From the NCBI RefSeq assembly GCF_036971445.1, contig NC_091476.1, positions 24,738,001 through 24,802,000 of the forward strand: a DNA stretch of 64,000 nucleotides, in the 5' to 3' direction. The notes under the pieces were generated by a model that saw only the letters and a program-made list of their open reading frames with translations, was not told the origin of the DNA and ran no database searches. This document shows positions 6,433-43,316 of this stretch, piece after piece. Numbering within the stretch: the first letter of the stretch is position 1; each line of letters starts with the position of its first letter. Origin of the DNA: Narcine bancroftii. Taxonomy: Eukaryota. The position numbers and the translations under genes were made by a program.

Positions 6433-7589
6433 GAGAGGTGGGAGGGGGGGAGAGGGGGGGAGGGGGGGAGAGGGTGGGCTGGGGGGGGGGGAGAGGGTGG
6501 GCTGGGGGGGGGGGAGAGGGTGGGCTGGGGGGGGAGGTGGTGGGGGGGAGAGGGTGGGCTGGGGGCGAGAGGTGGTGTGGGGGGGAGAGGGTGGGCTGGG
6601 GGCGAGAGGTGCTGGGGGGGGAGAGGGTGGGCTGGGGGGGGAGAGGGTGGGCTGGGGGGGGGGAGAGGGTGGGCTGGGGGGGGGGAGAGGGTGGGCTGGG
6701 GGGGGGAGAGGGTGGGCTGGGGGGGGAGAGGGTGGGCTGGGGGGGGAGAGGGTGGGCTGGGGGGGAGAGGGTGGGCTGGGGGGGGAGAGGGTGGGCTGGG
6801 GGGGGAGAGGGTGGGCTGGGGGGGGAGAGGGTGGGCTGGGGGGGGAGAGGGTGGGCTGGGGGGAGAGGTGGTGGGGGGGAGAGGGTGGGCTGGGGGCGAG
6901 AGGTGGTGTGGGGGGGAGAGGGTGGGCTGGGGAGAGGGTGGGCTGGGGGCGAGAGGTGGTGGGGGGGAGAGGGTGGGCTGGGGGCGAGAGGTGGTGGGGG
7001 GGAGAGGGTGGGCTGGGGGCGAGAGGTGGTGTGGGGGGGAGAGGGTGGGCTGGGGGGGGAGGTGGTGGGGGGGGGGAGAGGTGGTGGGGGGGAGAGGGTG
7101 GGCTGGGGGCGAGAGGTGGTGTGGGGGGGAGAGGGTGGGCTGGGGAGAGGGTGGGCTGGGGGCGAGAGGTGGTGGGGGGGAGAGGGTGGGCTGGGGGCGA
7201 GAGGTGGTGGGGGGGGAGAGGGTGGGCTGGGGGGGGGAGAGGGTGGGCTGGGGGGGGAGAGGGTGGGCTGGGGGGGGGAGAGGGTGGGCTGGGGGGGGGA
7301 GAGGGTGGGCTGGGGGGGGGAGGTGGTGGGGGGGGGAGAGGTGGTGGGGGGGAGAGGGTGGGCTGGGGGCGAGAGGTGGTGGGGGGGGGAGAGGGTGGGC
7401 TGGGGAGAGGGTGGGCTGGGGGCGAGAGGTGGTGGGGGGGAGAGGGTGGGCTGGGGGCAAGAGGTGGTGGGGGGGGAGAGGGTGGGCTGGGGGCGAGAGG
7501 TGGGGGGGGGGAGAGGGTGGGCTGGGGGCGAGAGGTGGGGGGGGGGAGAGGGTGTGCTGGGGGCGAGAGGTGGGGGGGGGGGGGAGAGA
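6433..7589 (+). repeat. G-rich minisatellite with very high G-quadruplex potential
   Basis: Tandem units GAGAGGGTGGGCT(G)n interleaved with CGAGAGGTGGT(GT)(G)n. G-runs vary in length and strand skew is extreme. Confidence 0.95.
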
Positions 7590-10943: not shown

Positions 10944-11988
10944 TGTAATTACACCACTAGGCCACCAGGGGTCATCCTGATGACCTTGTATATAAAGCAG
11001 TCCAGAGCTACAGTCTAGCCTTCCAGGTTCGTCTTGCAGAGAGACAAGATCTCTTAGTGTACATATTAGTTTATTAAAGCTGTCTTATACTTGCACTGCT
11101 GGTGTGGTTATTGCCAGTGCAATTTAATAAACTAATATCATAGCTACTAGAATGGAAGCTGCTTCTGCTCCAATGCATGTTCCCAACTACCTGGAGACTC
11201 TTCCTGAGGAATGGAATCCGAGGACGACCAGCACACACGTGCATCTGAGGACAGAGATGGCGAGGGACTGCTGTACTGGAATCGTAGTGGAATATGGGGA
11301 AGACCACAGAAGTACGATAGGGAAGGTAAGAAATGGCTAAGAGCCCTGCCTGCCTGTGGGTTTTCCGGTACAGGCGCCACCGACCCTAAACCCTGGTCCG
11401 ATCAGAAAGGGGCCACTACAAGCACGGGTGGAAGAATCTCTACAAGTCATGCTCCTGATCGCCACATATGTGCACAATTCCTGACCACTCCAGAGCCAGG
11501 AAAAGCAGACACAGCTACCGTCACTTCCCCAGTACCCACGGAGACGTGGCGCTACCGCTGGGATCCCCTCCTAAGCCCGTTGCAAACATCCCAAAGCCAA
11601 AGACTCAGCCAACAGCCCCAAGCACCCAGGTTACTCCTCCAGTAGACACAAGCCCCACAGAGGCTCTACCAGCAGCTCCCAGTACCCTAGGGTCCGCCTA
11701 TGCTACATCTAGACCCAGAGACCACGTGGAGACTAGGAATGACTCCTGGGGTTCCCCCACATTACTTAAGAGACCAGAGACTGTGGCTTAGCCATGTGCT
11801 GCGACCAGACAGGCTGGAGCTTGACCTCATAAATACCGAAGCCGGCATGCACTTCGGCTCCTGGCAGAGATGCTTTCTGAATTACGTGGAGGGTGCTGAG
11901 ACATCAGATAAAGAGCTATTAATGCTGCTGTTAGTGCAGCTGGGAGACCACCCTTACTCCCTTATACAGGATGCCAGGTCCTACCAAG
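10944..11988 (+). mobile_element. 5' part of a Gypsy-type LTR element: LTR (about 10944-11121) plus gag start, cut by a hAT insertion
   Basis: TGT...TATATAAA...ATTAAA...GCA LTR-like block. Downstream peptide VLRPDRLELDLINTEAGMHFGSWQRCFLNYV resembles Gypsy Gag N-termini (LRPxRLxxDP...W..W..cF.Ny). Confidence 0.55.
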
Positions 11989-14839
11989 CAGGGCCGGTTT
12001 TAAGCCTATTTGACCAATTTGATCAAATTGGGCCCCACACCTCAAGGGGGCCCCGTGCACATGTTTGAGTCCAGGCCTTGAGTAGAGAACACTGTGAAGG
12101 ACTTCGTTTAAACTGGTAAGAAAATAATAATACTATAGGCCTTATAAACTGAAGGATTTGTCAGTGAACTTGTGAAGTTATTGCCCTTAATTGATCATAT
12201 TATCTCAGTGAAATATTTTTAGGAAATATGTCTTCGATTAAATTACTGGCTATAGGCCTTCTTTGTCTCCCTATCCAAAAATTTCATGTTTCATATTCAT
12301 TTCACCCAGTAAGATAGATGAATTCCTGAGCTGATGAAGCATCTCATTATTATCAAGATCAAAACAGGCTATAGGCTAATCAATGAGAACTTGTACTTTA
12401 ATATGAGATTGAGATAGCGTCATGCTAGCCTAGGGCCTAGGCTTAAGCAGTTAGCCTGAACGTAAAAAGCCTAGGCCTAAGCATAGAATTTCTGACAATG
12501 TTGGCAATCGTAGATGGAATTGGTGAGGATATTCGGGTCTTGTAAAGATGAATAACCCCAAAGGTAGGTTAGTTTAAGTTGATCTTTACTAGGCTAGGTC
12601 GCTGTGGGGGTTATAGCCTATATCTTCACGAGCTGGTTTACAAGGTTATTCAGCAATAGGGGTATGTACTGTACAGCTAGGGGTTATTCATCGTTACAAG
12701 ATCCAGATATTCTTAGCAAGGCTGCCTTTGTCATTGTTTCATAATTTTGCAGTGGTTTGATTTAGTATCAAAATAGTACTAGGCTACTGTTACTAACTAT
12801 GCTATTGCACTGCCAGGGCTTAATATAGCCTATTTCATGTTTTTGGTGATTTGGAACAGGTGCAGTTTAGCTTGACCATGTGGAAATTGTTTTCTTCGGG
12901 GGCGAATTTCATCCATTACACACGTCAGTTTTTCCACCGATTTTCTAGCCAAATATCTAGTGACAAACTAGTGCTAGACATTTGACTAGAAAATCAGCTA
13001 AATTAAAGTGCGTCCCCCCCCATTCTGGAATGCAACCTTAACTAACTAACCTAACCTAACTAACTTAACCGTAACTAAAAAAAGGCAATTCTTACCTTAT
13101 TTGAAGTTGTTGTCATTCAACAAATCCAGGATCGGTCGCTTGTTTTGCTGTTCGGTGGTGTTCACAAGTTAAGAGTTGGGTGCATTGTTCCAAGGTCAGC
13201 AGCTGACGTTGGAACAACGTAAAGCTAACGAGCAAAATGATGTGGGATTGACGTTGGTTTCTTAATGTTGTACTAACGATAATGACAACATTGTTCCACT
13301 GTTGGAACAACGTAGACATGTTATCAGGGATGTCAAGTCCAATTTTATAAAAAAATTGCTAACGTCAAGTTTTTTGTGTAATTTTAAGTCTAAACATTTT
13401 AAAATATACTTCTTTTACCTTAGCAGCTTAAAATTTGTATGTCATTTTACATGGCAAGCACAAGCAGAGATAGAGACAAAGGGCGTAATTATTTAAGCGG
13501 CAACCAGAAATGAGCACTGGCCAAGACTAAGGTAGCTGAAAATGAAAAACATAGAGGTGCTATCACAAAATTCCTTGTCACTCCATCTTTGAAGTGCCCA
13601 TGTATTGAGGATGAAGAAAACAAAAACAATTCAGAAAATGACAATACAGCTTTGAGTCCAATTACAGTTGATGAATACAATGATGAAATTGATAACAAGT
13701 TAGAAAAGGATGACGCAGCTGTGAATCAAATTGAAGAAGATCTCAATACACCAGAAGACAGTGCCAAAGCGGGAAGTCCACTTATAGCCTAAAAGGACCA
13801 AGCCCAAACATAACGCAATGATGGATCATCCATGAGTACAGTTGTAATTAACATTTATGATGACCCAACCAACTGGCCAGCAAATATAAATCAAAATGTA
13901 AGAGATTATTTAACAATGAAAGGTCCTCCTATTCCAGTGAACAACTTTCCACGAAATGAAAAGGGATTGTGTTTTTCAAAGTTTCACTGTAAGAGGAAAC
14001 TTCCAAATGGGGAGTGTGTTGAAAGACCTTGGATTATATACCCTGTCTGCTGATAGAATTTATTGCTTTTATTGTAAACCTTTTAGTAAGAACACAACCA
14101 GTGCATTATCAACAAGTGGATTCAACAAATGGTCTAATCTTCATACAAGGTTGTGTGAATATGAAAATTCTAAAAAAAACCCTTTGGAAGCCACATGGAG
14201 TTTCTGGGAGTTACACCAAAGACTTTGTAGTGGACAGACAATTGACAAAGAATTTGAAATAATCGTCAATGAACATGCAAAGCACTGTCAGCCAGTATTC
14301 AAAAGGCTAGTAGCAATAGCGCAGTTTCTTGCTGAGAGAAATCTAGCATTTAGAGGAACAGAAGAAAAAGTTGGTAATGAGAGTGTACACAATGGAAACT
14401 TTTTAGGTCTTGTTGAGCTGTTTGGAAAGTTTGACCCTGTTCTTGAAGAACATTTGAGAAAAGTCAAAACCCATGAAATTCATAATCACTATTTAGGAAA
14501 AGATACACAGAATGAACTACTAGACATTATGGCTACAGCTGTTTTGAATGAGATACTGAAACGCGTAAAAGCAGATAAGTACTACACCATAATTTTAGAC
14601 TCACACCTGTTAAGAGTCACCAAAAGCAAAAGTCTCTAACGATCAGGTATGTGTCTGATGGTAACTTGGCTCCTTCAGGTGCTTATGAACATTTCATAAA
14701 GTTTATGCAGGTTGAAAGTAGCACAGGAGAAGATTTATATAAAACATTATTAAACACACTGAAGGAATTAAATTTAGAGGTGAAAGACATTCGAGGCCAA
14801 GGCTATGACAACGGTAGCAACATGAAAGGTCACACATGA
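11989..14839 (+). mobile_element. hAT DNA transposon, 3'-truncated, with a ZMYM1-like/DUF4371 transposase pseudogene
   Basis: Begins with hAT-type TIR CAGGGCCGGTTTTAAG and GGGCCCC subterminal motifs, followed by the transposase remnants listed next. No 3' TIR found. Confidence 0.75.
13451..14839 (+). pseudogene. hAT transposase (TTF zinc finger plus DUF4371), disrupted by stops and frameshifts
   Basis: Motifs RPWI..., YCFYCKPF, GFNKW, FLAERNLAFRG, NGNFLGLVELFGKFDPVL, YYTIILD and IRGQGYDNGSNMKG are split over ORFs 13589, 13832, 13956 and 14651. Confidence 0.85.
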
Positions 14840-23269: not shown

Positions 23270-24330
<1,061 letters not shown>

Positions 24331-27300
24331 ACAGCCCATCACTAATCCCTAAGCGATTAGTCCCAAACCCTGCCCCACCACCCTAGAACAGAACCCTTGC
24401 TCCTCCAGCTTTCAAACTTGGTGTACCATTGCTGCCTCACCTGGTCTACCACGCTCTCCGATGCATTTGGATGGATATGTTTTTTTAAAAAAATGTCTTG
24501 TTGTTTTCATTTTAAATGCATCACGTTGTTTATTAAACTAGTGCACTTGGATCTTGACCAAGCCAAAAGTTGGGTTGTGCGTGCGTGTTTTTGGAGGTGG
24601 CGCATCTGGGTGTTGGCACACAGCCCAATGCCTTGAAGCAGCTAAATTAATCGCGTTTGACGTAAAGAATTGAAAGAGAATGAAGTAATTCCAGCGGTGA
24701 GAGTGTCCGAGAAAGTGATGCGGACGCAAACAGTGGGGACACATGAAGTTAATGGATATTTCAGGTGGGAGCAATTGAGGATGGACTGCAAACTGCTTTC
24801 TTTTCAAGAATTACTTAATGGGGAGGTTAATCCGCAATGGCGAGACACTTTCTGTTTACAACGACGGGGTGCCAAATAGTATTTTTTTAAAAAAAGGGTC
24901 TGTCTTTGTTTCGGACAGCGCGGTGCACGAAGTTCGACGAAATGCGGTTTGTATTTTAAAATAAATGTTGGCCAAACAACGCGTAGCCATTAACCACGAT
25001 AAACGAGTTCATAGTGAGATCATTGATGTCAACATTTGGGTAAGTCTGCAAAGGTTTCTGCAAAGACATTTTATGCAGGGGTTTCCAGGAAATGTTTCTT
25101 CTGATTATGTGATATGCCATTAAAAAAAATAAAGCTATTTTGTGATTAGTACAAATGTCAAAAGTCTTGACGGTTTAATTTGTACCTCGTTATTTAATTT
25201 TTTTGATGCGTGACTTTAAACTCTATTTTGGTAGCATATTTGCAAGGTTTAACAAACGGTTGGTGAGCAGTTTGTATGAAAGAGCATTCTGATTCACAAA
25301 TGTTTAATGCCGTGGATGCAGATCTTTCAATAGAACAAATGGGCTACGAGATGAAATAAATTATGAACACTTGCCCCATTGTTCTACTGGCAAGATACTT
25401 GCATGCCACAGTCCTTCAATTTAAACTTAAAAATTTCAATAAACTGGCATCAATATCCCACTTGATACAAAAGAAGTGCATTCACCACCTTCAAGAACGG
25501 TACTAACTGCAACTTAACATAAAGCTTATTTTTAATTCCCTTTGAAGCAGGACTTCATAGACTATCTCGGTGTTAGCTATTTGTCCATTCTTAATTGTGC
25601 AGTACTTTTGTAGTGGCAATTTAAATGAATGATCTTTTCGTGTGGATTGCAGCTTTTGATATGCACAAATGCATAGGTAAAGGAATAGAACACAAGCTTG
25701 AACTCAATAAAGCATGATGAATGGATTTGAGTAGATTCAGGTGCCCTTTTTTTAATTGAACAGAAGGGACCATTTGGGCCAGCACTGACATACCTACTTG
25801 TAAATCCAGTTTTATCCGGCCTTGATAATTGTTTGGAATCGTCTTGTTGAGCATCACTTCAGAGCACTAAAGGGTAAAATGGAAATTAAAAGTTGAAATA
25901 ATTAAAAATAACATTCTTCCAATCTCTATAAATATTTTAAGTCTTGCAGCAACTATTTTCATTATGGAGTTGCGACTTTATTGTTCATGCACATTTAAAT
26001 AAAAGGAGAGCACAGAATGAAGTTATTTGGGTCCATGTGTTAAAGAGAGATAATCTTTAACCGGCTCTGCTGTATTCTAATATCCCTAAACATCCTTGTA
26101 CTTTTATATTGTTGTTTAGAAAAAGTCAATAATGTGAATGTTAAGAATTTCATATTGATTATTTAAGTATAACTTTTTTTATCTTTCAAATAAAGTTTTT
26201 TTTTAATGGAAGTACAAGATGTGCCTCCTTCTTCGGAACTGGTAGGTTCATCAGGCCCTGCACTGGTATACTGCATTAGATACAGCTAAAAAAAATCTTT
26301 ATTTACTGTCAAGCATGTCCTGGTTTTCTCTGATTAGGTTCATTCAACTTTTGGAGTCAGATGGGTGTCACCAATCAACTCAGCAGAGCAGGTAAGCAAA
26401 TTCAGTTGAAACAAAGCTGTCTGTTGTATGTTGATGAACTTGGGGTGTTTATTGTGTTAAATAATTAACATTAAATCTTTCTAGATCCTTATAACAGGAA
26501 CTTGTTTCACTCAAATTTTACCTTTTCCATATGACTTTTAAAAAGTCATTCGTAATGAATATTGAATTACTTGTTGTGGCTTCTTTCCTGTTGACCCAGC
26601 ATGAAAATTGGGAAAAATAAAGCTCATTAAATTGCCTATGTTTATTCTAAATTTAAACTTAAAGCTTGAAATGCTCAGTAGGTCAGGCTGCATTTGTGGA
26701 AACAGAAATTGTTACTACTTTAACAGAACTGGGATATGTTAGAGATAAATAAGATGGAAGAAGAGAAAAATGTTGTGGCTGAAGTCCTCCTAATTCAAAA
26801 TATGGATAACTGGCACTTGTAAGATCTTGTACAATGTAGTACCAACGTATGGATGGAACATCAAAAGTCATATGTCAGCAACCTTTTTGATTTATCTTGA
26901 ATTGTTGGTTCATCTGATTGTTCAACTTGTCAAGAGAAAATTATTGTGTAGGGGAATGAGGAAATAATGAAACCCATTGTGGCTTTGCTGTCATGTCCAT
27001 ATTTCTTCCTCCATCACTAAATGATGTCAACATTAGCTCTTGTTTTTTTTAATTATCATCTGCCTAGGTACTACCATTTCTTGGGGCAGTTATGGTGAGG
27101 GGAAAACCTGTTGACCATTCAGAAGTGGGGACTCTAGATTAAAGCCCTTGTTGCAAGTCATATTTTCTTCCAGTCCGAGCCAATAAACTTGGCTGTTGAA
27201 GAACTGGTCTTGATCAAGATTAGAACTAAAATATATTCTGAACTCTGCATTACAAGGTAACCTAAAGACACATTTGCATGGCTTCATAGCCCTTTTGATG

Positions 27301-32143: not shown

Positions 32144-33670
32144 AGCAAAATGTAAGCCACTGCCATAATCTCCAGGGTCACGCAACCTTCAAGAGTAGTG
32201 ATTTGGACTTGCTTGGCCTTGTTCCTTGTCATCTGTATTTGGCTAGGTTGAACATGCCAGCAGCCAACTTGATGCACAGCTACACCCACTTTCTCATGGC
32301 AATATCCAAATTGTGGTGTTTATCTAATTCCCCTGAAATTGTATGGCTACAGGGACCATGCTTTCTTGTGGTTCAACAGAACTCCTGTTCTTCATGCCTG
32401 ATACAGGATCCTCTATTCTTCTTGTGTGATGCCAGTCTTTGAGTTTCTTTGGTGTGGCATAAGGTGCAATGACAAACAGCTCATCAGTATCGTCATCTTC
32501 TTGTTCCCTCCCGTTCTCCATTTACGGGTCCACATCTCCTTCTGCAACTTGGTGATGGGTTGGGAAAGGCCTCTCCTCCTACTCTTCCAAGACAATACAG
32601 CAGAGATTTGCATTTATAAACTATTCATAAGCCTGAATTATTTCCAAGGGATTTGTCGCATTTTCAGTTTCCTCCTCAGATGAGATTTTATTTTTGTACA
32701 GATGAATCCTGTTAAACTTTTCTTTTTGTTAAACTTTAAAATGAGAAAACCTCCTAATAACAATGCCACCAAATCAGCTGCAAAGTATAGCAAATATAGT
32801 CAGGTTCATCTGCAATAAACTACAGCAAGAAATGGAAATGCCCTCAAAATTGCAAAGACGTGTAGATGGTGTGTCTCTGGATCTTACTTCAAGTCGGGGC
32901 AAAATAAACTGTTGCCAGTCCAGTAAAATATAGTTCTTCCTTGGCACTTAATTATTTTCAGAGTGGCTATTGACTCGTCATGATGTTATCAGAAGATTTA
33001 GTGTCTGTCATAGAAAAAAAATCTATTGTTATCAAAGTTATTTAATCTCTGATGATGCTTCAAGATAGAGGATCACAGAAAGGATAACATTGTTTTTGTT
33101 CTTGGGTTTCTGTAATTATTTCTTGTATTATCTTTAAATGGGGAGTATTTCCTTCACCCAACCTAAAGTAAAGAGCAGACATCTAAGTAATTTATCCACA
33201 AAATTGGATATATTTTGATTACTTGGTGAGATGCAATGTCATGTACATTCAAAAAATCTGAGTGCCTTTAATACTACTTGCTGATTAAATGCCATATCAA
33301 ATTGAATTGAGAGATTGACTCAAAGTTTGAATAACTTATTAATGTTCCGATTACTCTGTTAATAAGATCTCTTAAAAACTGAAGGAATGACTTTGAAATC
33401 TGCTGGTAGATAACACTGAAATAACAACACAAACAAATCCAGGCTTTTTAAAAGGTGTGGGTAAAGCACAAAAGTCTGCAGACACTATGATTGAAGTAAA
33501 AAAATACAATGCTAGAGAAACTCTGCAGGTCAAACAGTGTACTTTATGTAGCACAGAAAAAGGTACATAACTAACATTTTGGGCTTGAGCCCTTCATCAA
33601 GGCTTATTCATACAGGCCCAAGCCTGAAACAATAGTTGTGTATCTTTGCATTTTAACATAAACCCAGTGT

Positions 33671-33844
33671 TGTCATGATAATGAATATGTATGAGATGTA
33701 CCGGAAGTCACGTGGTATGAGAGAGATAAGAACACAAGCAGGAGAACAAAGGAAACGGGAGAATAAAAGCCACTGAGAGGTTTACCTGATAAAACTTGTG
33801 TTTAATGTTTTATTAACTTCACATTTCGGGCCACAAATGTGACA
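33671..33844 (+). repeat. 5' LTR, 174 bp
   Basis: Identical to the 3' LTR except for one GA unit in a GA run; contains CCGGAAGTCACGTGG and AATAAA. Confidence 0.95.
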
Positions 33845-33845
33845 T

Positions 33846-33859
33846 TGGCGACGAGGATG
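33846..33859 (+). promoter_or_regulatory. Primer-binding site complementary to the tRNA-Ser(GCU) 3' end
   Basis: TGGCGACGAGGATG is the reverse complement of CATCCTCGTCGCCA, the recalled vertebrate tRNA-Ser(GCT) 3' end. Confidence 0.8.
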
Positions 33860-33973
33860 AAAGAAGCTTGAAGAAAATTAAAGACTAAACAAGATTACAG
33901 AGGATTACAGACAACTTCAAGGTGATAAGAATTTTCTCTTTGCTTAGTACTTTTGGGGCTGGAATATTTCCTC

Positions 33974-36900
33974 ATGGCTAGGGCAGACGGTGACTTTCTA
34001 ACACATAGTGGAATTGCTCATTTTGACCCAACGGGTGATGCAAGCACTGTAAGTGTGAAGTGGAAGGCATGGCTGGAAGAATTTGAATCCTATGCCGACA
34101 GTCGTGGCCTATTTCTAGATACCGGTACAGTTGAACAAAAAGCGCAGAGGAGGGCGTTACTTCTTTTCACTGCAGGACCCACAGTTCGGGAAACATTTAA
34201 GACACTTTTGAATACTGGAAGAAAGGATGAGTACCGGAAGGCGGTAGATGCATTAAATGCACACTATGTAGTGACACCGAATGCTACATTTCAATGCCAT
34301 TTGTTTCGGAGAACGAGACAAGAAGATGGCCAGACAATTGCTCAGTACGTGACGAGACTACGCCAGCTAGCTGTTGGATGCAATTACATGCCAGCTGATT
34401 TGGACAACCAATTATTGGATCAAGTCGTACAGCACTGCAGATCAGATAAACTCAGAAGACGTCTACTGGAAAGAGGGAGTGAGTTGGAACTCACCGATGC
34501 TTTAACCATTGCTGCTGCATTAGAGGCTGTTGAAGGGCAATTTCATACCATGACCCTGAAAGACAACTCAAGCCAGCAAATTAAGAGGCTCTCACATCGC
34601 CATAACCAGCCAAGATATACGTCGACACAGGACGTGGAATGTTATCGATGTGGAAACCGAGGTCACTTTGGAAAAGACCCATATTGCCTGGCCAAAGGCA
34701 AAGTTTGCAGAAAGTGTGGAGGTAAGGACCACTTTGCAAAGAAGTGCAAAAGCAAGTCCAATGCAGACCAGAAGAGGAAGAGTACAACTTCCAAAGGCAA
34801 AGCCTGGGGGAAAGGAAAGTATCCTGGAAAGAAAGATACCATTCGCCAGATAGACGGTGATGATGATGATACCCAGGAGGAACAGAGTTGTTACCAATTT
34901 ACGTTGAATGAAGTACGTCATGAGAAGGTCCCAGTGATCATTGGTGGAGTGACAGTTCAGGTCATTGTAGACTCAGGCAGTGACAGTAATGTGATTGATC
35001 GACATTTATGGGAGAAGTTGAAAAGGAAAAAGATCATCTGTATCTCAAAGAAGTGTTCCAAGAAACTGTATCCATACACGGCAACCAAGCCATTGCAGAC
35101 CATTGGATGTTTTACTGCAACTGTTGAAGCTGGAGATAAGTACACCGAAGCAGAGTTTACGGTCATAGAAGAGAGGGGAGAACCATTGCTGAGAAGAAAG
35201 CAAGACCTGGCAATACTTCATATTGGAGCTTGTGTCAATTCAATTCAGTCATACGAGGATATGAGCAAGAATTCCCCGTAGTCTTCCAAGGAGTAGGAAA
35301 GCTGAAAGGTCGACAATTGAAGCTAGCGGTAGATGAAACGGTCAAACCCAAGGCACAACCAATGCGCCGAACTCCGTTTGGACTTCATGGGAAAGTCTAA
35401 GCCAAAATTAAAGAATTGATCGAACAAGACATTATTGAACCTGTGGAACATTCGACTCAATGGGTCAGTCCCGTAGTGATTGTGCCCAAACCAAAGGGTG
35501 ACATAAGACTATGTGTTGACATGAGAATGGCCAATGAAGCTATAGTTCGAGAACGACACCCTATACCAACAGTGGAGGAAATACTTCAAGAACTAACTAC
35601 CAGCAAGATATTCTCAAAAATTGATCTGAAATGGGGCTATTATCAATTAGAGCTGGATCCAGGTTCCCGAGATATGACAACATTTGTGACTCACTGTGGA
35701 TTGTATCGTTACAAGAGACTATCATTTGGAATTAATGCAGCTTCGGAGATCTACCAGTATGAAATCCATCGAGTGATTCAAGGCATTCCTGGAGTTGCCA
35801 ACATTTCTGACGACATCATAGTCCATGCACCAACGAAGGAAGAGCATGACAAACGGTTGAGGTGTGTACTATCTAGACTACAGGAGGCAGGCCTTACCGT
35901 GAATGGAAACAAGTGCCAGTTTGGTGTGTCAGAAATGGACTTCATGGGACACAGACTTACACGGGAAGGACTAAACCCTGCAGAGGCCAAGGTGAAAGCT
36001 ATTGCAGAGGCCCGTGCACCTCAGAACGCAACAGAGGTGAGGAGTTTCCTGGGATTGGTCAATTTTTGTGCAAAGTTCATTCCTAATTTCGCTACAGTGG
36101 CAGAACCACTAAGGAAACTAACCAGGAAAGGTGTGCCATTTCATTTTGGATCTGAGCAAAAGAAAGCGTTCACAGCGCTAAAGCAAAGCCTGACAGATGC
36201 AAAAACTCTTGGATATTACGATCCGGCGGCATCAACCAAAGTCATAGCGGATGCCAGCCCAGTTGGTTTAGGAGCCGTGTTGGTCCAGATGCATGATGGA
36301 GGACCAAGAATCATTGCCTATGCCAGCAGATCGTTATCAGATGTGGAAAGAAGATACTCTCAGACAGAGAAAGAAGCACTCGGACTTGTATGGGCCTGTG
36401 AGAGGTTCCATGCATATTTATACGGCATTGAATTTGAACTCACCACAGATCATAAGCCATTAGAGGTGATCTATGCACCTAGATCCAAACCATGTGCCAG
36501 AATAGAGAGATGGGTACTCAGACTACAACCACATTGCAGGGAAAGCAAACATTGCAGATCCGCTGTCCAGATTGGTGAAGGATGGTGGTCCACATTCCAA
36601 GTCAGAATTGGGAACAGAAACAGAGACCTTTGTACGCTTCGTAGCTATTCAGGCGACACCGAAAGCTGTGACTATGAAGGAAGTCGAGAGAGAATCCGAA
36701 CGTGTTCCAGAACTCATGGAAGTAAGAGAATGCATACAGAGTGGACAATGGGACAAGTGTACTCACAAGGCTTACATTCCCATTAGAGACGAACTTTGTT
36801 GCATCGGACAGTGTGTATTAAGAGGTTGCAGATTGGTGATACCGCAAAGATTGAGACCGAAGATTGTATCCTTAGCGCATGAAGGACACTTAGGTATTGT

Positions 36901-38038
36901 TGGTACCAAGCAAAACCTCAGAACCAAGGTATGGTGGCCAGGTTGTGATAAAGACGCAGAGAGATTTGTTAAAACTTGTCACGGATGTCAAATCACAAGT
37001 AGGAGTAATCTGCCAGAACCGATCCGGAGTACGCAACTTCCGACAGGACCATGGATCGACGTAGCTGTTGATTTTCTTGGACCTTTACCGACGGGTGAAT
37101 CAATTATGGTAGTGATAGATTACTACAGCAGATACTATGAGTACGTGGTGTTGAAGTCCACAACCACTGAAAAAATAATACAAGCATTAGCAGAGATATT
37201 CGCAAGATATGGATTACCTGTTACATTATACTCTGACAATGGTCCACAATTCATTTCAGAGACATTTGCGGAATACATGAGAACCACAGGTATCCACCAT
37301 CATAAAGTAACTCCGAAATGGCCGCAAGCCAATGGAGAAGTAGAGAGACAAAATCAGTCCATTGAAAAACGATTGAGGATTGCACACGCAGAAGGACAAA
37401 ATTGGCGAGAAGCATTGCTATCTTATGTGGCTGTCTATCGAGCAACGCCTCATGCAACCACTGGAAAAAGTCCTGCAGAAGCATTTTTTGGGAGAAAAAT
37501 CCGCACAAAAATGCCAGAAATAAAGGAAATCCGAGACGACCAGGAGATGAGGGACCACGATGCTGAAAAGAAAGGTGCAGCAAAGCTGTACACAGATTCG
37601 AAACGTAGAGCCAAGTACTCAGACATCATGCCAGGAGATAATGTTCTAGTGAGGCATGAAACTGGTGGTAAGCTAGACACACCTTATTACCATCAACCCT
37701 ATACTGTCGTATCCAGAAGTGGCAGTATGGTGACAGTCAAGTCTCCGACTGGAGTCCTGTATAAGAGAAATGTCTCAGGTGTAAAAAGGTACCAGTCCAG
37801 AGATACATCGAGCGAAGAGGTTGAAAGGCCAATACGAGATGCTGAAACTGAGAGACCTGATGATGTTCCAGAGGCAGTTACCAGCACTCCTGATGAAGTG
37901 ACTAGAGCGCCAGAAACACTCGAAGCCGTGGCGAGCAGTATTGCCGACGCCGAGAGTGAACAACCGAGAAGCGACGACAATATCGCAGGCAGGCCGAAAC
38001 AGAAACCGCCCAAACGATACGAAGACTTTGTGCCATAG
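33974..38038 (+). pseudogene. Gypsy gag-pol polyprotein, disrupted (frameshift about 35200-35280, in-frame TAA 35398-35400, frameshift/deletion about 36530)
   Basis: CYRCGNRGH and CRKCGGKDH knuckles; protease IVDSGS; RT RLCVD/KIDL/ISDD; RNase H ADAS, TDHKPL; integrase HEGH..CHGC, VAVDF, SDNG, NGEVER. Confidence 0.92.
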
Positions 38039-38216
38039 TTTTAATAAGAACTTTGGGACAGTATTTTAATCTTATATCATAAAGTGCATGTATGAGTGCT
38101 GTAGGAAGTAAATTTTATGTAGTTGAGTTATAGTATTACCATTAGTTACGATGTTTGTATGTTTCCGAGGGATATTGGTAAGTGAAGGTAAAGTTTATTT
38201 CTGATTAAAGGAGGGA

Positions 38217-38392
38217 TGTCATGATAATGAATATGTATGAGATGTACCGGAAGTCACGTGGTATGAGAGAGAGATAAGAACACAAGCAGGAGAACAAAGG
38301 AAACGGGAGAATAAAAGCCACTGAGAGGTTTACCTGATAAAACTTGTGTTTAATGTTTTATTAACTTCACATTTCGGGCCACAAATGTGACA
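38217..38392 (+). repeat. 3' LTR, 176 bp
   Basis: Direct repeat of 33671-33844, preceded by the PPT and followed by the TSD. Confidence 0.95.
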
Positions 38393-39850: not shown

Positions 39851-41039
39851 TTCTTGACCAGCTGTACAAAAGGAGGAAAACAAAATGAAAGAGAATAGTT
39901 ATGGCCTCTTTGCCCCTTAAGCCTGCCTCCACATTCAAAATGATCATGGGGAAAATGTGTCCAAGACCTCATTTCCTCTGCCCTGCTGCTTCCCTTTTGC
40001 CTTAGTTGTCCAGTTTTTGTTTTTGGTTACCCTCTGTTGGTCCCAGCCTCCATGACATCTTGGGGTTCAAAGTTCAAGAGTTACCAACCTCTTTGTTGCC
40101 AAATGTTGAATGTCAGAAGAATGACATAATTTCTGACCAGGAAACCAATTAGTTCTCCAAGGAAAGGAAAGTGGTCAAGCACTGGGAGTTGGGAGTGAGG
40201 GCAGGGATCCGAGACACAGTTAATAATGTTAGCAAAGCAGTTGGAACGAGAAAGTAAAAGTTAAGTGAAATTAATGGGTTTGCAATGCATTAAATATCTA
40301 CATTTAGAATCTCCTATATAACTTCCCCAATACCTAGTCTATTAGCTGTTCAAATATTGCAGGAAACAAGAAGATTTCATTGAATAGGTGATACTTGACA
40401 GTTTTAGTGCGGAACAAAATTACAGCTGTTGCGTGTGGGGAAAACAAGAAACGTCTCTGACTGGAGAGCAAATAAATAATAGAGAACCAGCAGTTGCATA
40501 TTTTTGCTGCTTGAGGCAATCAATTTCACTCCAATAACTGAAAATATATTTCAAGATGGTTTTAGAGGCAATGTTATATTATGGATTCAGTGATCCCAGC
40601 TTGCTTAGCACACCGATGCCATGAATTGCAAAATAATGCATTGCAGAAATACAGTACAGAAAAATATTTGCAAATTGCTTGAATGTCAGTAATAAAAACA
40701 ATGCTACAAATATTAGAAATTATTTTGCAGAAACTAATCAAATCCCCATCTATCAGTATTCATTTCTCAAGTGAAGTGCAGTTTAAATTAAAACTCAAGT
40801 CCTTTGAAATGTTTTATTCAGAGTATTGGCCATGGCTCGATCAACTCTCTGGTTACCCAAATTTAGGACCAGCTGTATTTATGATTAAAGATTTTCAGTT
40901 CTCAAAACTTCAGATGAATATTTACAAATTTTCAATTAAAGCTCGATCTATTCAGAATTTTCAAAACTATAAAGAATAAGTAATCCCTTCAATATGAAAG
41001 TCTGGTCTTACATAATGCAGTATTTGTATTTTATCACAG

Positions 41040-41312
41040 AGGAAGAAACAGCACCTGGTATGTCTATAATCACAGAAGAACAAAATGCAGTCAACGATTC
41101 TAATCAGGATGCAGAGGACACAACAAGCTGCAATGATGTCTCTGTGTCCAGCCAGGACAGCTGTTCGGAGGCTAATTCTAGATCGAAAGCAATGAATGAA
41201 AGTTCCCATGAGCCATCACACAAATCACCCATGCCAGAGCAGAACAATGTGCAAGAAATACAAAGGGCTGAGGACAAAGATATCATGAAAAATTCTCAAC
41301 ACTCAAAAGGAG
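41040..41312 (+). CDS. kctd12b: Predicted KCTD12b exon 2 (acidic Ser/Asn-rich linker), symmetric phase-1 cassette of 273 nt
   Basis: Acceptor tttgtattttatcacAG and donor GAG|GTGAGA. Open frame continues exon 1 (C+AG=Gln) and joins exon 3 (G+TT=Val). Similar to the 5' part of exon 3. Confidence 0.7.
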
Positions 41313-42855
41313 GTGAGAGATTGAAGTAAAGTCAAACCAATGATATTCTGATACAAAATGAAGAAGTTTGAGCTAGTCTATTGTGCCTTGTTACTTTTGA
41401 ACACATTGCATATTAATATGAGTGGGTGGTGAATGGTTGATGAAGACTTATGGGCCAATGGGCCTATTCATGTGTTGGATCTTCCCTGTAATTCCTCACT
41501 TTGTTCCATAATTCCAATGACAGGTGTAGTATATTTTTGAGATACTGGAATAAATGGCCTAGAGTTCAAAGCTCAGCACAGGAGCTAAAAACTTAAATCT
41601 GGAATTTAAAAAAATGATAACCGTGACCATGAAATAAATAGATTGCTATGAAAATCCATCTGGTTCACTGATGTTCTTGATCTGACCTGAATGTGACTTC
41701 AAAGTTTCTGCCACAGGATTATTAACTCTTACTCATGAACTGATCTGCTAATTTAGTTGTTTCAAAGCTCATTGATTAAAAATAATGAAACTATACAGAC
41801 CTGCTGAAATTTGGAACCATTCGTGATGAAAATACATCAAGCACAATCAGTCCCACAAAGTCCATCTCACTAACATCTGAGAACTTGGCTAGAACTAAGG
41901 AAGGAGCATGGACTTGAGGAGGGAATTTTTTAGCGAATGCTTGAGAGCTTAGGAAGACTTATGGCATCAAGTCAAACAAGGGTACGGAAATCTATTGACT
42001 AGAATCATGGAGCCATACAGCATGGAACAAGCCCTTTGGCCCAACTTGTCTGATGACATACCTTCAATAGGATCCATATGAATCAATACTATTCCATGTC
42101 GGATTCCATTTGGAAGGTACAGCAAAGGTAGCAAGAGAACATAACACTTTTTCAGAAGATAACTTTAATATTTGTTACTAAGTCTGCTTTGAGGTCAAGA
42201 TTTTCTTGAGGTCACTAACCATTCTGCTATAGAAATATAACAATATTCTTTTATCATAATTGAGTCAAATTTCTGTAAGCCTTCACCTAATCACACTATG
42301 GAAGTACCTTCTATTTTCCATCCCTTTTGGCCCCTGAACTAACAGATAAGAATTAATTATACTCCTGTGTCTAGAGCCGTGTTTAGGCCAGACCTGGTAA
42401 GAATGCCAGATTTCCTTCCCAGAAGGATATTAGTGAACCAAATGTGTTTCCCCAACAGCTTGGTAGTTCTCTGGTTATTCCTACTTGTATTTTTAATTTT
42501 TTGAAGAAATAGATTTGCTGCAGTCTGTATGATGAATAAATGCTTGTATTCCTAGCAACATCCAAGCTCTCATGAATGAATAATCTTCTCAAGAGTTTTA
42601 ACAGATATGAAAGAACCTATGCCCCATGAGTCAATAGCAGAGATGAACAGTATGTTTCACTAAATTATTACTAAATAATGTCGGAAAATGAATGCATTTT
42701 AAAAGAATAATTTAAAATAAATATTCTCAAGATTAATTAAAATTTAAAATTAAAAGATAGTCATTTCTACTGAATTTTCTTTGAATTGTTTACCCATTAG
42801 TAATTGACAACTTAGTTGTTACATTTGTTGTATTTGTTTTTGAATTTCACTACAG

Positions 42856-43316
42856 TTGAAGATACCTCACAGTATTTAGACGATGTTGCAGAAGAACAGA
42901 ACGACAAAATCGTTGAAAGCAGTAAGAATACAGAGGATTCAACCAATTGCCCTGATAACGCCACTTTCAGCACAGAGAGCAATTCTAATGTAAACACTGG
43001 GTCGGAAGTCATGAACAAAAGTCTCCAGGAGCACCCACAGCGAGCAACAACTCTGGAACTCAATGATGTGCAAAGGATGTTACATGAAGACAAAATCTTA
43101 CATCACCAGAAAGTGAGCAAACGAACAAACACAAATCAAAGTAGTTTTGACAAAACCACTGATTTGGAGCAAAATAAAAATAATGATGAAAAACAGACAT
43201 TGGAAGCAGAGCTGCAGAAATGCATAGAGGATTTGAAAAAACTGAAAATACCATCCTCATTTTTGAAGAAGCAGAGGCAATGGCAAAATGAATTATTAAA
43301 AAAGTATGATATGTAA
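42856..43316 (+). CDS. kctd12b: Predicted KCTD12b terminal exon encoding linker plus H2-domain core
   Basis: Acceptor tttgtttttgaatttcactacAG, phase 1. Ends LEAELQKCIEDLKKLKIPSSFLKKQRQWQNELLKKYDM*, matching the recalled KCTD16/8 C-terminus ELEKCIQDFxKIxIPDxFPERKxxWQSELLxKYxL*. Confidence 0.88.

Follow-up and report, generated by a model that had tools for sequence, protein, structure and literature searches.

The 64,000-nucleotide stretch of the electric ray Narcine bancroftii analysed here (contig NC_091476.1, positions 24,738,001 to 24,802,000 of the forward strand; the window in the following) contains an orthologue of KCTD12b, as judged from its domains and from a tree. Coding exon 1 specifies a T1/BTB domain at the N-terminus followed by the KCTD8/12/16 H1 domain, with two Pfam matches over the cut-offs (PF02214, E 1e-16, and PF23110, E 3e-55), and the TFLEQ variant of the T/NFLEQ signature lies within H1 at positions 24181-24195. 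The exon clusters with the RefSeq-named KCTD12b of sharks (support 99/98), apart from the ray's own KCTD12, KCTD8 and KCTD16, in a tree of 16 rows from which mammalian references are absent and whose paralogue labels were assigned in this analysis. Three other KCTD paralogues are found on other contigs of the genome, with an H2 match in only two of them. The donor of exon 1 is intact and in phase with downstream tail exons, here called X, E2 and E3 (Table 1), the last of which encodes an H2 end. E2 is a tandem partial duplicate of the 5′ half of E3, the terminal exon.

Table 1. Features of the KCTD12b gene, followed by other features of the window; positions are counted from the first letter of the window.
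Feature	Position	Strand	Remarks
KCTD12b coding exon 1	23512..24322	+	T1/BTB and H1; phase-1 donor, C/gtgagt, starting at 24323
Exon-1 donor GTGAGT	24323..24330	+	read-through gives ...YRE-stop, 272 amino acids, H2-less
Exon X	26338..26391	+	54 nucleotides, phase 1-1, conserved; ATG at 26361; in RefSeq model
E2, duplicated exon	41040..41312	+	273 nucleotides, 91 codons, phase 1-1, acag/AG ... GAG/gtgaga
E2 motif A, Ser-rich	~41117-41182	+	
E3, terminal exon including stop	42856..43316	+	E2-homologous part ~42856-43125
E3 motif B, RATTLEL	43041-43061	+	
Internal GTGAG in E3	43113..43117	+	phase 0; does not correspond to the E2 donor
E3 two-helix H2 end	~43179-43313	+	
G-rich tandem array	6446-7588		periods 14/35/53, GC skew 0.55, many GGG runs
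First exon of RefSeq tail-only model	11211-11325	+	upstream of KCTD12b exon 1; high-copy repeat
232-amino-acid open frame	13941-14639	+	resembles hAT-type transposase fragment
Ty3/Gypsy-type long terminal repeat (LTR) retrotransposon	33666-38392	+	in intron X-E2, sense; gag, protease, reverse transcriptase, RNase H, integrase; three frames

Exon layout and coding options

A first-pass annotation of the window had placed exon 1, E2 and E3 correctly but had missed exon X, which is conserved; what was then called exon 2 is therefore the third coding exon. The splice sites of exon X are the strongest among the exons of the gene, its peptide motif was found in 15 of 16 sequences tested, and isoform pairs differing by its 18 amino acids are present in Scyliorhinus canicula (775/757 amino acids) and in both Chiloscyllium plagiosum and C. 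punctatum (606/588). E2 has ordinary splice sites, with a donor that matches 7 of 9 consensus bases. It is symmetric, as had been proposed, and its 91 codons can be skipped without loss of frame. Splicing in silico yields proteins of 272 (read-through), 423 and 514 amino acids without internal stops; these lengths had been calculated correctly beforehand, but the list was incomplete, the in-frame products being 272, 423, 441, 514 and 532 amino acids once exon X is counted.

Nine named shark proteins of 277-279 amino acids terminate in YRE, the ending obtained by reading through the exon-1 donor. The KCTD16-type exon of this genome also runs into a YRE-stop when read through, which makes the short ending a by-product of the donor consensus. 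In the KCTD12 paralogue of the ray (locus L005, contig G000:C16, near 82824440), which carries NFLEQ, GG replaces the donor GT that KCTD12b, KCTD8 and KCTD16 have before the GAG-stop. The change marks a dead splice donor and would be a simple route to the loss of H2. The RefSeq model of the Narcine bancroftii gene (P0001, 300 amino acids) maps to the upstream exon at 11211-11325, exon X, E2 and E3.

E2 is a partial copy of the terminal exon

The alignment of E2 with the initial ~88 residues of E3 has a local protein score of 115, a value reached by none of 5000 shuffles in each of three schemes, the maxima of which lay between 77 and 88; BLASTP gives 34% over 74 amino acids (E 3e-9). The duplication suggested by the first-pass annotation is thus borne out, and so is the DNA comparison proposed with it: aligning 40950-41400 with 42780-43200 gave a score of 377 against a maximum of 167 in dinucleotide shuffles (0/1000). 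Dinucleotide and codon shuffles at the DNA level gave 0/500, 0/1000 and 0/2000, the last being the codon shuffle. Nucleotide identity between the two exons is ~64% over the ungapped columns of the local alignment, and the resemblance of their acceptors, also noted earlier, was equalled by 4 of 1000 shuffles.

The homology extends from about the acceptor to perhaps 70 nucleotides beyond the E2 donor (3/1000), eight segments having been tried in these segment-wise tests. Similarity of the intron sequences upstream of E2 and E3 is marginal (46-117 of 1000 shuffles), and the H2-coding end of E3 has no copy at E2 (754 of 1000 shuffles were as good). We have consequently rejected the idea that the terminal exon was copied in its entirety, or that a full 1.8-kb unit was, as similarity is absent from the H2 part and from what lies beyond it (754 and 666 of 1000). 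Used as a query against the genome, E2 matched only itself and E3. An artefact of composition is ruled out by the local-window, dinucleotide and codon shuffles, and a recent duplication or an assembly artefact by the 32% amino-acid identity between E2 and E3 and by orthologues in 13 other species.

One element of the original proposal did not hold. The internal GTGAG of E3 at 43113 had been regarded as roughly corresponding to the E2 donor, but it lies in phase 0 and the donor in phase 1. Its GT belongs to a Val codon, and 12 of 13 related proteins have Ile and one has Thr at that residue. With the phase mismatched and the residue not conserved, the match is probably a coincidence and the sequence was rejected as parent of the E2 donor, which appears to be new and not inherited.

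Age and direction of the copy

The extra exon was looked for in other species and E2 orthologues were found in 13 of them. In a tree of 14 E2 and 13 E3 units (13 species with one model each, C. punctatum being left out) the two exons are split with support 100/100, and both clades hold sharks and batoids. Mean identities are 64% among E2 units, 62% among E3 units and 43% between E2 and E3. A single duplication older than the shark-batoid split accounts for this pattern. A later, second duplication is seen in Heptranchias (P0002), which has two E2 units that are 87% identical.

As for direction, E3 (152 amino acids) is collinear with the terminal exons of the KCTD8-type (151 amino acids) and KCTD16-type (148 amino acids) genes of the same genome, which identifies it as the parent; in 2000 shuffles none reached the score with which residues 1-105 of E3 match the KCTD8-type spacer. 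As expected of a tandem duplicate, the paralogue outgroups are single-copy and the E2 and E3 copies fall into separate clades.

E2 in annotated gene models

Twenty-one retrieved proteins contain the elasmobranch H2 start, of which two were excluded (P0007, a single-exon Logan frame, and P0047, 121 amino acids, in which the module is absent). In the remaining multi-exon tail models, which are database gene models from 14 species, E2 lies upstream of E3 in 19 of 19 and none skips it. T1-H1 is joined to H2 in nine of the 19, from five shark species, and all nine include E2. The possibility that E2 might never be included in transcripts had been named as fatal to the original idea; it can be set aside, as the RefSeq model of Narcine bancroftii carries E2 letter for letter. 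Judged from these models, E2 is more likely a fixed lengthening, present constitutively in the long form with H2, than a cassette under regulation.

Motifs, structure and length of the tail

AlphaFold2 models of six sequences place confident helices at the C-terminus only. The predicted local distance difference test (pLDDT) value is ~87-95 in the H2 helices and mostly <50 upstream of them, with residues 1-214 of P0001 below 50, and Pfam holds no model matching the KCTD12b tail. A C-terminal helical H2 is likewise described for KCTD8/16 in PMC8699099.

Within the disordered part, E2 and E3 have tended to retain different motifs of the ancestral tail. Scored against 12 paralogue windows, motif A (TSCN[DE]xSTSS.DS) was the better match in E2 for 12 of 14 pairs, and motif B (RxTTLxL) the better match in E3 for 13 of 14. 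Conservation of the motif A window is 0.83 in E2 and 0.74 in E3. The KCTD16-type spacer gives a score of 100 with E2 (0/2000 shuffles) and of 47 with E3 (33/2000). The frame of E2 is open and its length 88-91 residues in 13 species. E2 had been seen as part of a modular H1-H2 spacer, but a region that is homologous to the KCTD8/16 terminal exons and bears conserved motifs is no featureless one.

Tail length varies widely between species. Batoids, Heptranchias and Pristiophorus have a single 34-residue unit containing motif B, whereas galeomorph sharks have two to eight: Cetorhinus has two, carpet sharks have three, Mustelus has seven and Scyliorhinus eight. The distance from the end of H1 to the H2 helix is 277-466 amino acids in sharks and 93-225 in lizards and one frog. 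Such a spread between species suggests that the exact length is not tightly tuned. Moreover, the form skipping E2 (423 amino acids) would have a tail of 152 amino acids as compared with 151 and 148 in the KCTD8/16-type exons, so that under a steric model the 423- and 514-residue forms would be expected to behave much alike. Taken together these two points make a length dial with three steps unlikely; in the annotated models no E2 skipping was seen (0/19), and the exon that is optional there is the 18-codon exon X.

H2-bearing tails in other vertebrates and a docking-like motif

A profile search with the tail end returned 66 representatives. Four could not be parsed, and 40 of the remainder were KCTD12b-type by diagnostic words, 39 of which cluster together in a quick H2 tree. 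Looking up the names of ten gave turtles, chicken and quail, passerines, frogs, a marsupial, Podarcis lizards, one unnamed entry and a squirrel KCTD16; full T1-H1-H2 models exist in Podarcis lizards and one frog. KCTD12b-type tails with H2 are thus present in many non-placental vertebrates. In lizards, frogs, turtles, birds and a marsupial, annotation frequently assigns them to a gene of their own that is uncharacterised or named 'KCTD8/16-like' (P0015, P0017, P0052, P0058, P0105 and relatives). One bird UniRef model (P0122, 397 amino acids) has a tandem double H1, possibly from duplication in assembly or annotation.

The JIP1-type JNK docking pattern, which we take to be [RK]P-x-x-L-x-hydrophobic, was picked after motif B had been seen. 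It occurs in 29 of the 39 KCTD12b-type tails with enough sequence (P0037-P0077; shuffled mean 0.56, maximum 4) and in one of 17 KCTD8/16 tails. Among 14 elasmobranch sequences only Heptranchias satisfies it strictly (RPTTLEL); the Narcine bancroftii tail does not, as Ala replaces Pro (RATTLEL). Three JNK activation-loop loci were located. According to Zeke et al. 2015 (PMC4670726), a Thr precedes the first Leu in the JIP1-type class; KCTD8/12/16 are absent from seven supplementary files of that paper. RxTTLxL could equally well be a basophilic phosphorylation site (R-x-x-T).

Other features of the window

The retrotransposon in the intron between X and E2 has LTRs identical over 126 nucleotides and is therefore a young insertion. 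The upstream exon with which the RefSeq tail-only model begins belongs to a high-copy repeat (859 candidates; 40 of 40 scored matches, 39 of them elsewhere at 90-91% identity), which renders the N-terminus of P0001 unreliable; it reflects either a transcript driven by the repeat or an artefact of annotation. The G-rich array could form G-quadruplexes, and the 232-residue frame had no Pfam match at E 0.01.

Discussion

The reading that we favour, and consider probable, is that E2 is a shark-ray partial tandem copy of the last KCTD12b exon that is likely constitutive in the long H2 form. In an elasmobranch ancestor a segment made up of the acceptor and the initial ~85 codons of the last exon would have been copied upstream, and the copy would have acquired a phase-1 donor of its own, adding 91 residues in frame. 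Its retention might be linked to E2 keeping motif A better while E3 keeps RxTTLxL and the H2 helices. With each exon tending to keep a different motif, the long form has the best copy of both only when it contains E2 and E3, and this partition is a likely reason why the copy was retained.

Seddik et al. in 2012 reportedly linked T/NFLEQ to desensitisation, and are said to have found the action of H2 to be steric and independent of sequence. According to several papers, T1 binds GABA-B2 and H1 binds G-beta (PMC5508304, PMC8121548, PMC6566181, PMC7317483), H1 desensitises and H2 inhibits this desensitisation, and KCTD12/16 heteromers tune the kinetics (PMC5508304, PMC8121548, PMC7317483). Applied to the ray gene, the main switch would be the use of the exon-1 donor. 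Read-through would produce a 272-residue T1-H1 subunit with TFLEQ, which should desensitise GABA-B responses via G-beta-gamma; splicing would produce a subunit of 514 or 532 residues whose disordered tail and H2 helices would block desensitisation. Any gradation would more likely arise when short and long subunits assemble into the same pentamers than when E2 is skipped. A broader scheme, in which KCTD12b outside placental mammals would be switchable by one donor, with the tail as a platform for motifs that are split in elasmobranchs, and in which the two- to eightfold multiplication of RxTTLxL in galeomorphs would couple GABA-B kinetics in the habenula to a kinase, is put forward as doubtful.

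Several observations weigh against our reading. The link between exon 1 and the tail is annotated only in sharks and found in none of five batoid models (4 species). Inclusion and skipping were read from database gene models, which under-report minor isoforms, and rare or tissue-specific skipping of E2 would be compatible with them. Sequence alone is no proof of the 272-residue protein, which may be a prediction artefact in some species, and the functional roles given to the short and long forms are predictions. Regarding the partition of motifs, the 14 pairs are related by descent and so lack phylogenetic independence, motif A is reversed in both Scyliorhinus species with a near tie in one Heptranchias copy, and the KCTD8-type spacer scores E2 and E3 alike (68 and 72). 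Constraint on E2 is modest, with an identity to its relatives of only 48-58% as compared with 87-93% for H2.

One alternative, which seems very improbable, is a gene split in rays and skates, with exon 1 encoding a T1-H1 protein and X-E2-E3 an H2-only protein initiated at the exon-X ATG. T1-H1 is indeed absent from all five batoid and from five of 14 shark models, tail-only models also occur in chicken, quail, turtles, passerines, frog and marsupial, and 11 of 15 sequences have the exon-X Met. Many possible polyadenylation hexamers lie 3′ of the exon-1 stop, a weak argument in AT-rich DNA. However, exon 1 has kept an intact, in-phase donor where the ray's KCTD12 has GG, and joined models exist in five shark species, lizards and a frog. 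In addition, the tail-only N-termini are mutually unrelated, the first exon in Narcine lies within a high-copy repeat and the exon-X Met is lost in four of the 15 sequences.

E2 might instead be a nearly neutral filler, fixed by drift in a disordered linker and kept because it is in frame, with no partition of motifs; this differs from the reading that we favour only in the reason for the retention of E2. We judge it very unlikely in view of the open frame, the near-constant length across 13 species and the better conservation of motif A in E2 than in E3, even though the low identity of E2 across species and the predicted disorder would suit it, and the extra Heptranchias duplication and the expansion of repeats in E3 mark the region as permissive. 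The original proposal of E2 as a regulated cassette, with 272, 423 and 514 amino acids as three grades of desensitisation set by tail length, can draw on the frame-neutral symmetry of E2, its ordinary splice sites and the alternative splicing of the neighbouring exon X, but is very improbable because no multi-exon model skips E2, symmetry is what results when a phase-1 acceptor is copied into a phase-1 intron and is needed by any exon included there, and the 423-residue form has the tail length of the non-desensitising KCTD8/16.

Taken alone, the duplication of an exon is nothing unusual in gene evolution, and E2 already figures in automatic gene models. An H2-bearing KCTD12b is the more interesting finding as one gene could yield both H2-less and H2-bearing subunits. 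The accepted model, in which H1 desensitises and H2 blocks in cis, rests on different mouse genes and on chimeras, and a KCTD12b with both TFLEQ and an H2 tail would be a natural version of the H1/H2 chimera. If the short form comes from the same gene, this model and a route to H2 loss by read-through followed by donor decay, of the kind seen in the ray's KCTD12, become directly testable. The shark tails of ~280-470 residues offer a natural length series for distinguishing steric from motif-based action. Kctd12b marks the medial habenula of the catshark, according to PMC11589584 and PMC9671474, and probes or models confined to exon 1 would not separate the KCTD12b forms there. Our literature search, with subscription papers mostly outside its coverage, returned nothing on the duplicated exon, on KCTD12b splicing or on an H2-bearing KCTD12b, and the part of PMC11169412 available has nothing on H2. 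The evolutionary analysis of Seddik 2012 or its supplements may already cover non-mammalian H2 exons.

Comparison with known systems

Tandem exon duplication is a well known mechanism. The ray exons resemble other cases in being adjacent, on the same strand and with the same acceptor phase, and the copies predate the split of the species. The case differs in that a terminal exon was partially copied and needed a new donor, that mutual exclusion with the parent is impossible and that skipping is unannotated. The likeness to a JIP1-type JNK docking motif lies in RP-x-T-L-x-hydrophobic, present in 29 of 39 KCTD12b-type tails; with its RATTLEL the ray departs from it, and the motif is a candidate docking site.

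With KCTD8 and KCTD16, for which H2 ranges are given in PMC13361646, the ray gene shares a phase-1 intron after H1 and a terminal exon of ~150 codons that combines Ser-rich and TL motifs with a two-helix end. In this genome, however, those genes have a single tail exon whereas KCTD12b has three, one of them a partial duplicate, and the tail of the ray gene is attached to a KCTD12b-type H1. As in mouse KCTD12b and KCTD12, which are auxiliary subunits of the GABA-B receptor, there is a T1 and an H1 domain with TFLEQ, an RE-stop when the donor is unused and, among the orthologues, the names given by RefSeq. It contrasts with them in keeping an intact donor and downstream H2-tail exons, KCTD12 and KCTD12b being described as lacking H2 in PMC8121548. 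With an H2 exon downstream and in phase, and with shark models in which the two are joined, the ray gene is a variant and not a textbook KCTD12b.

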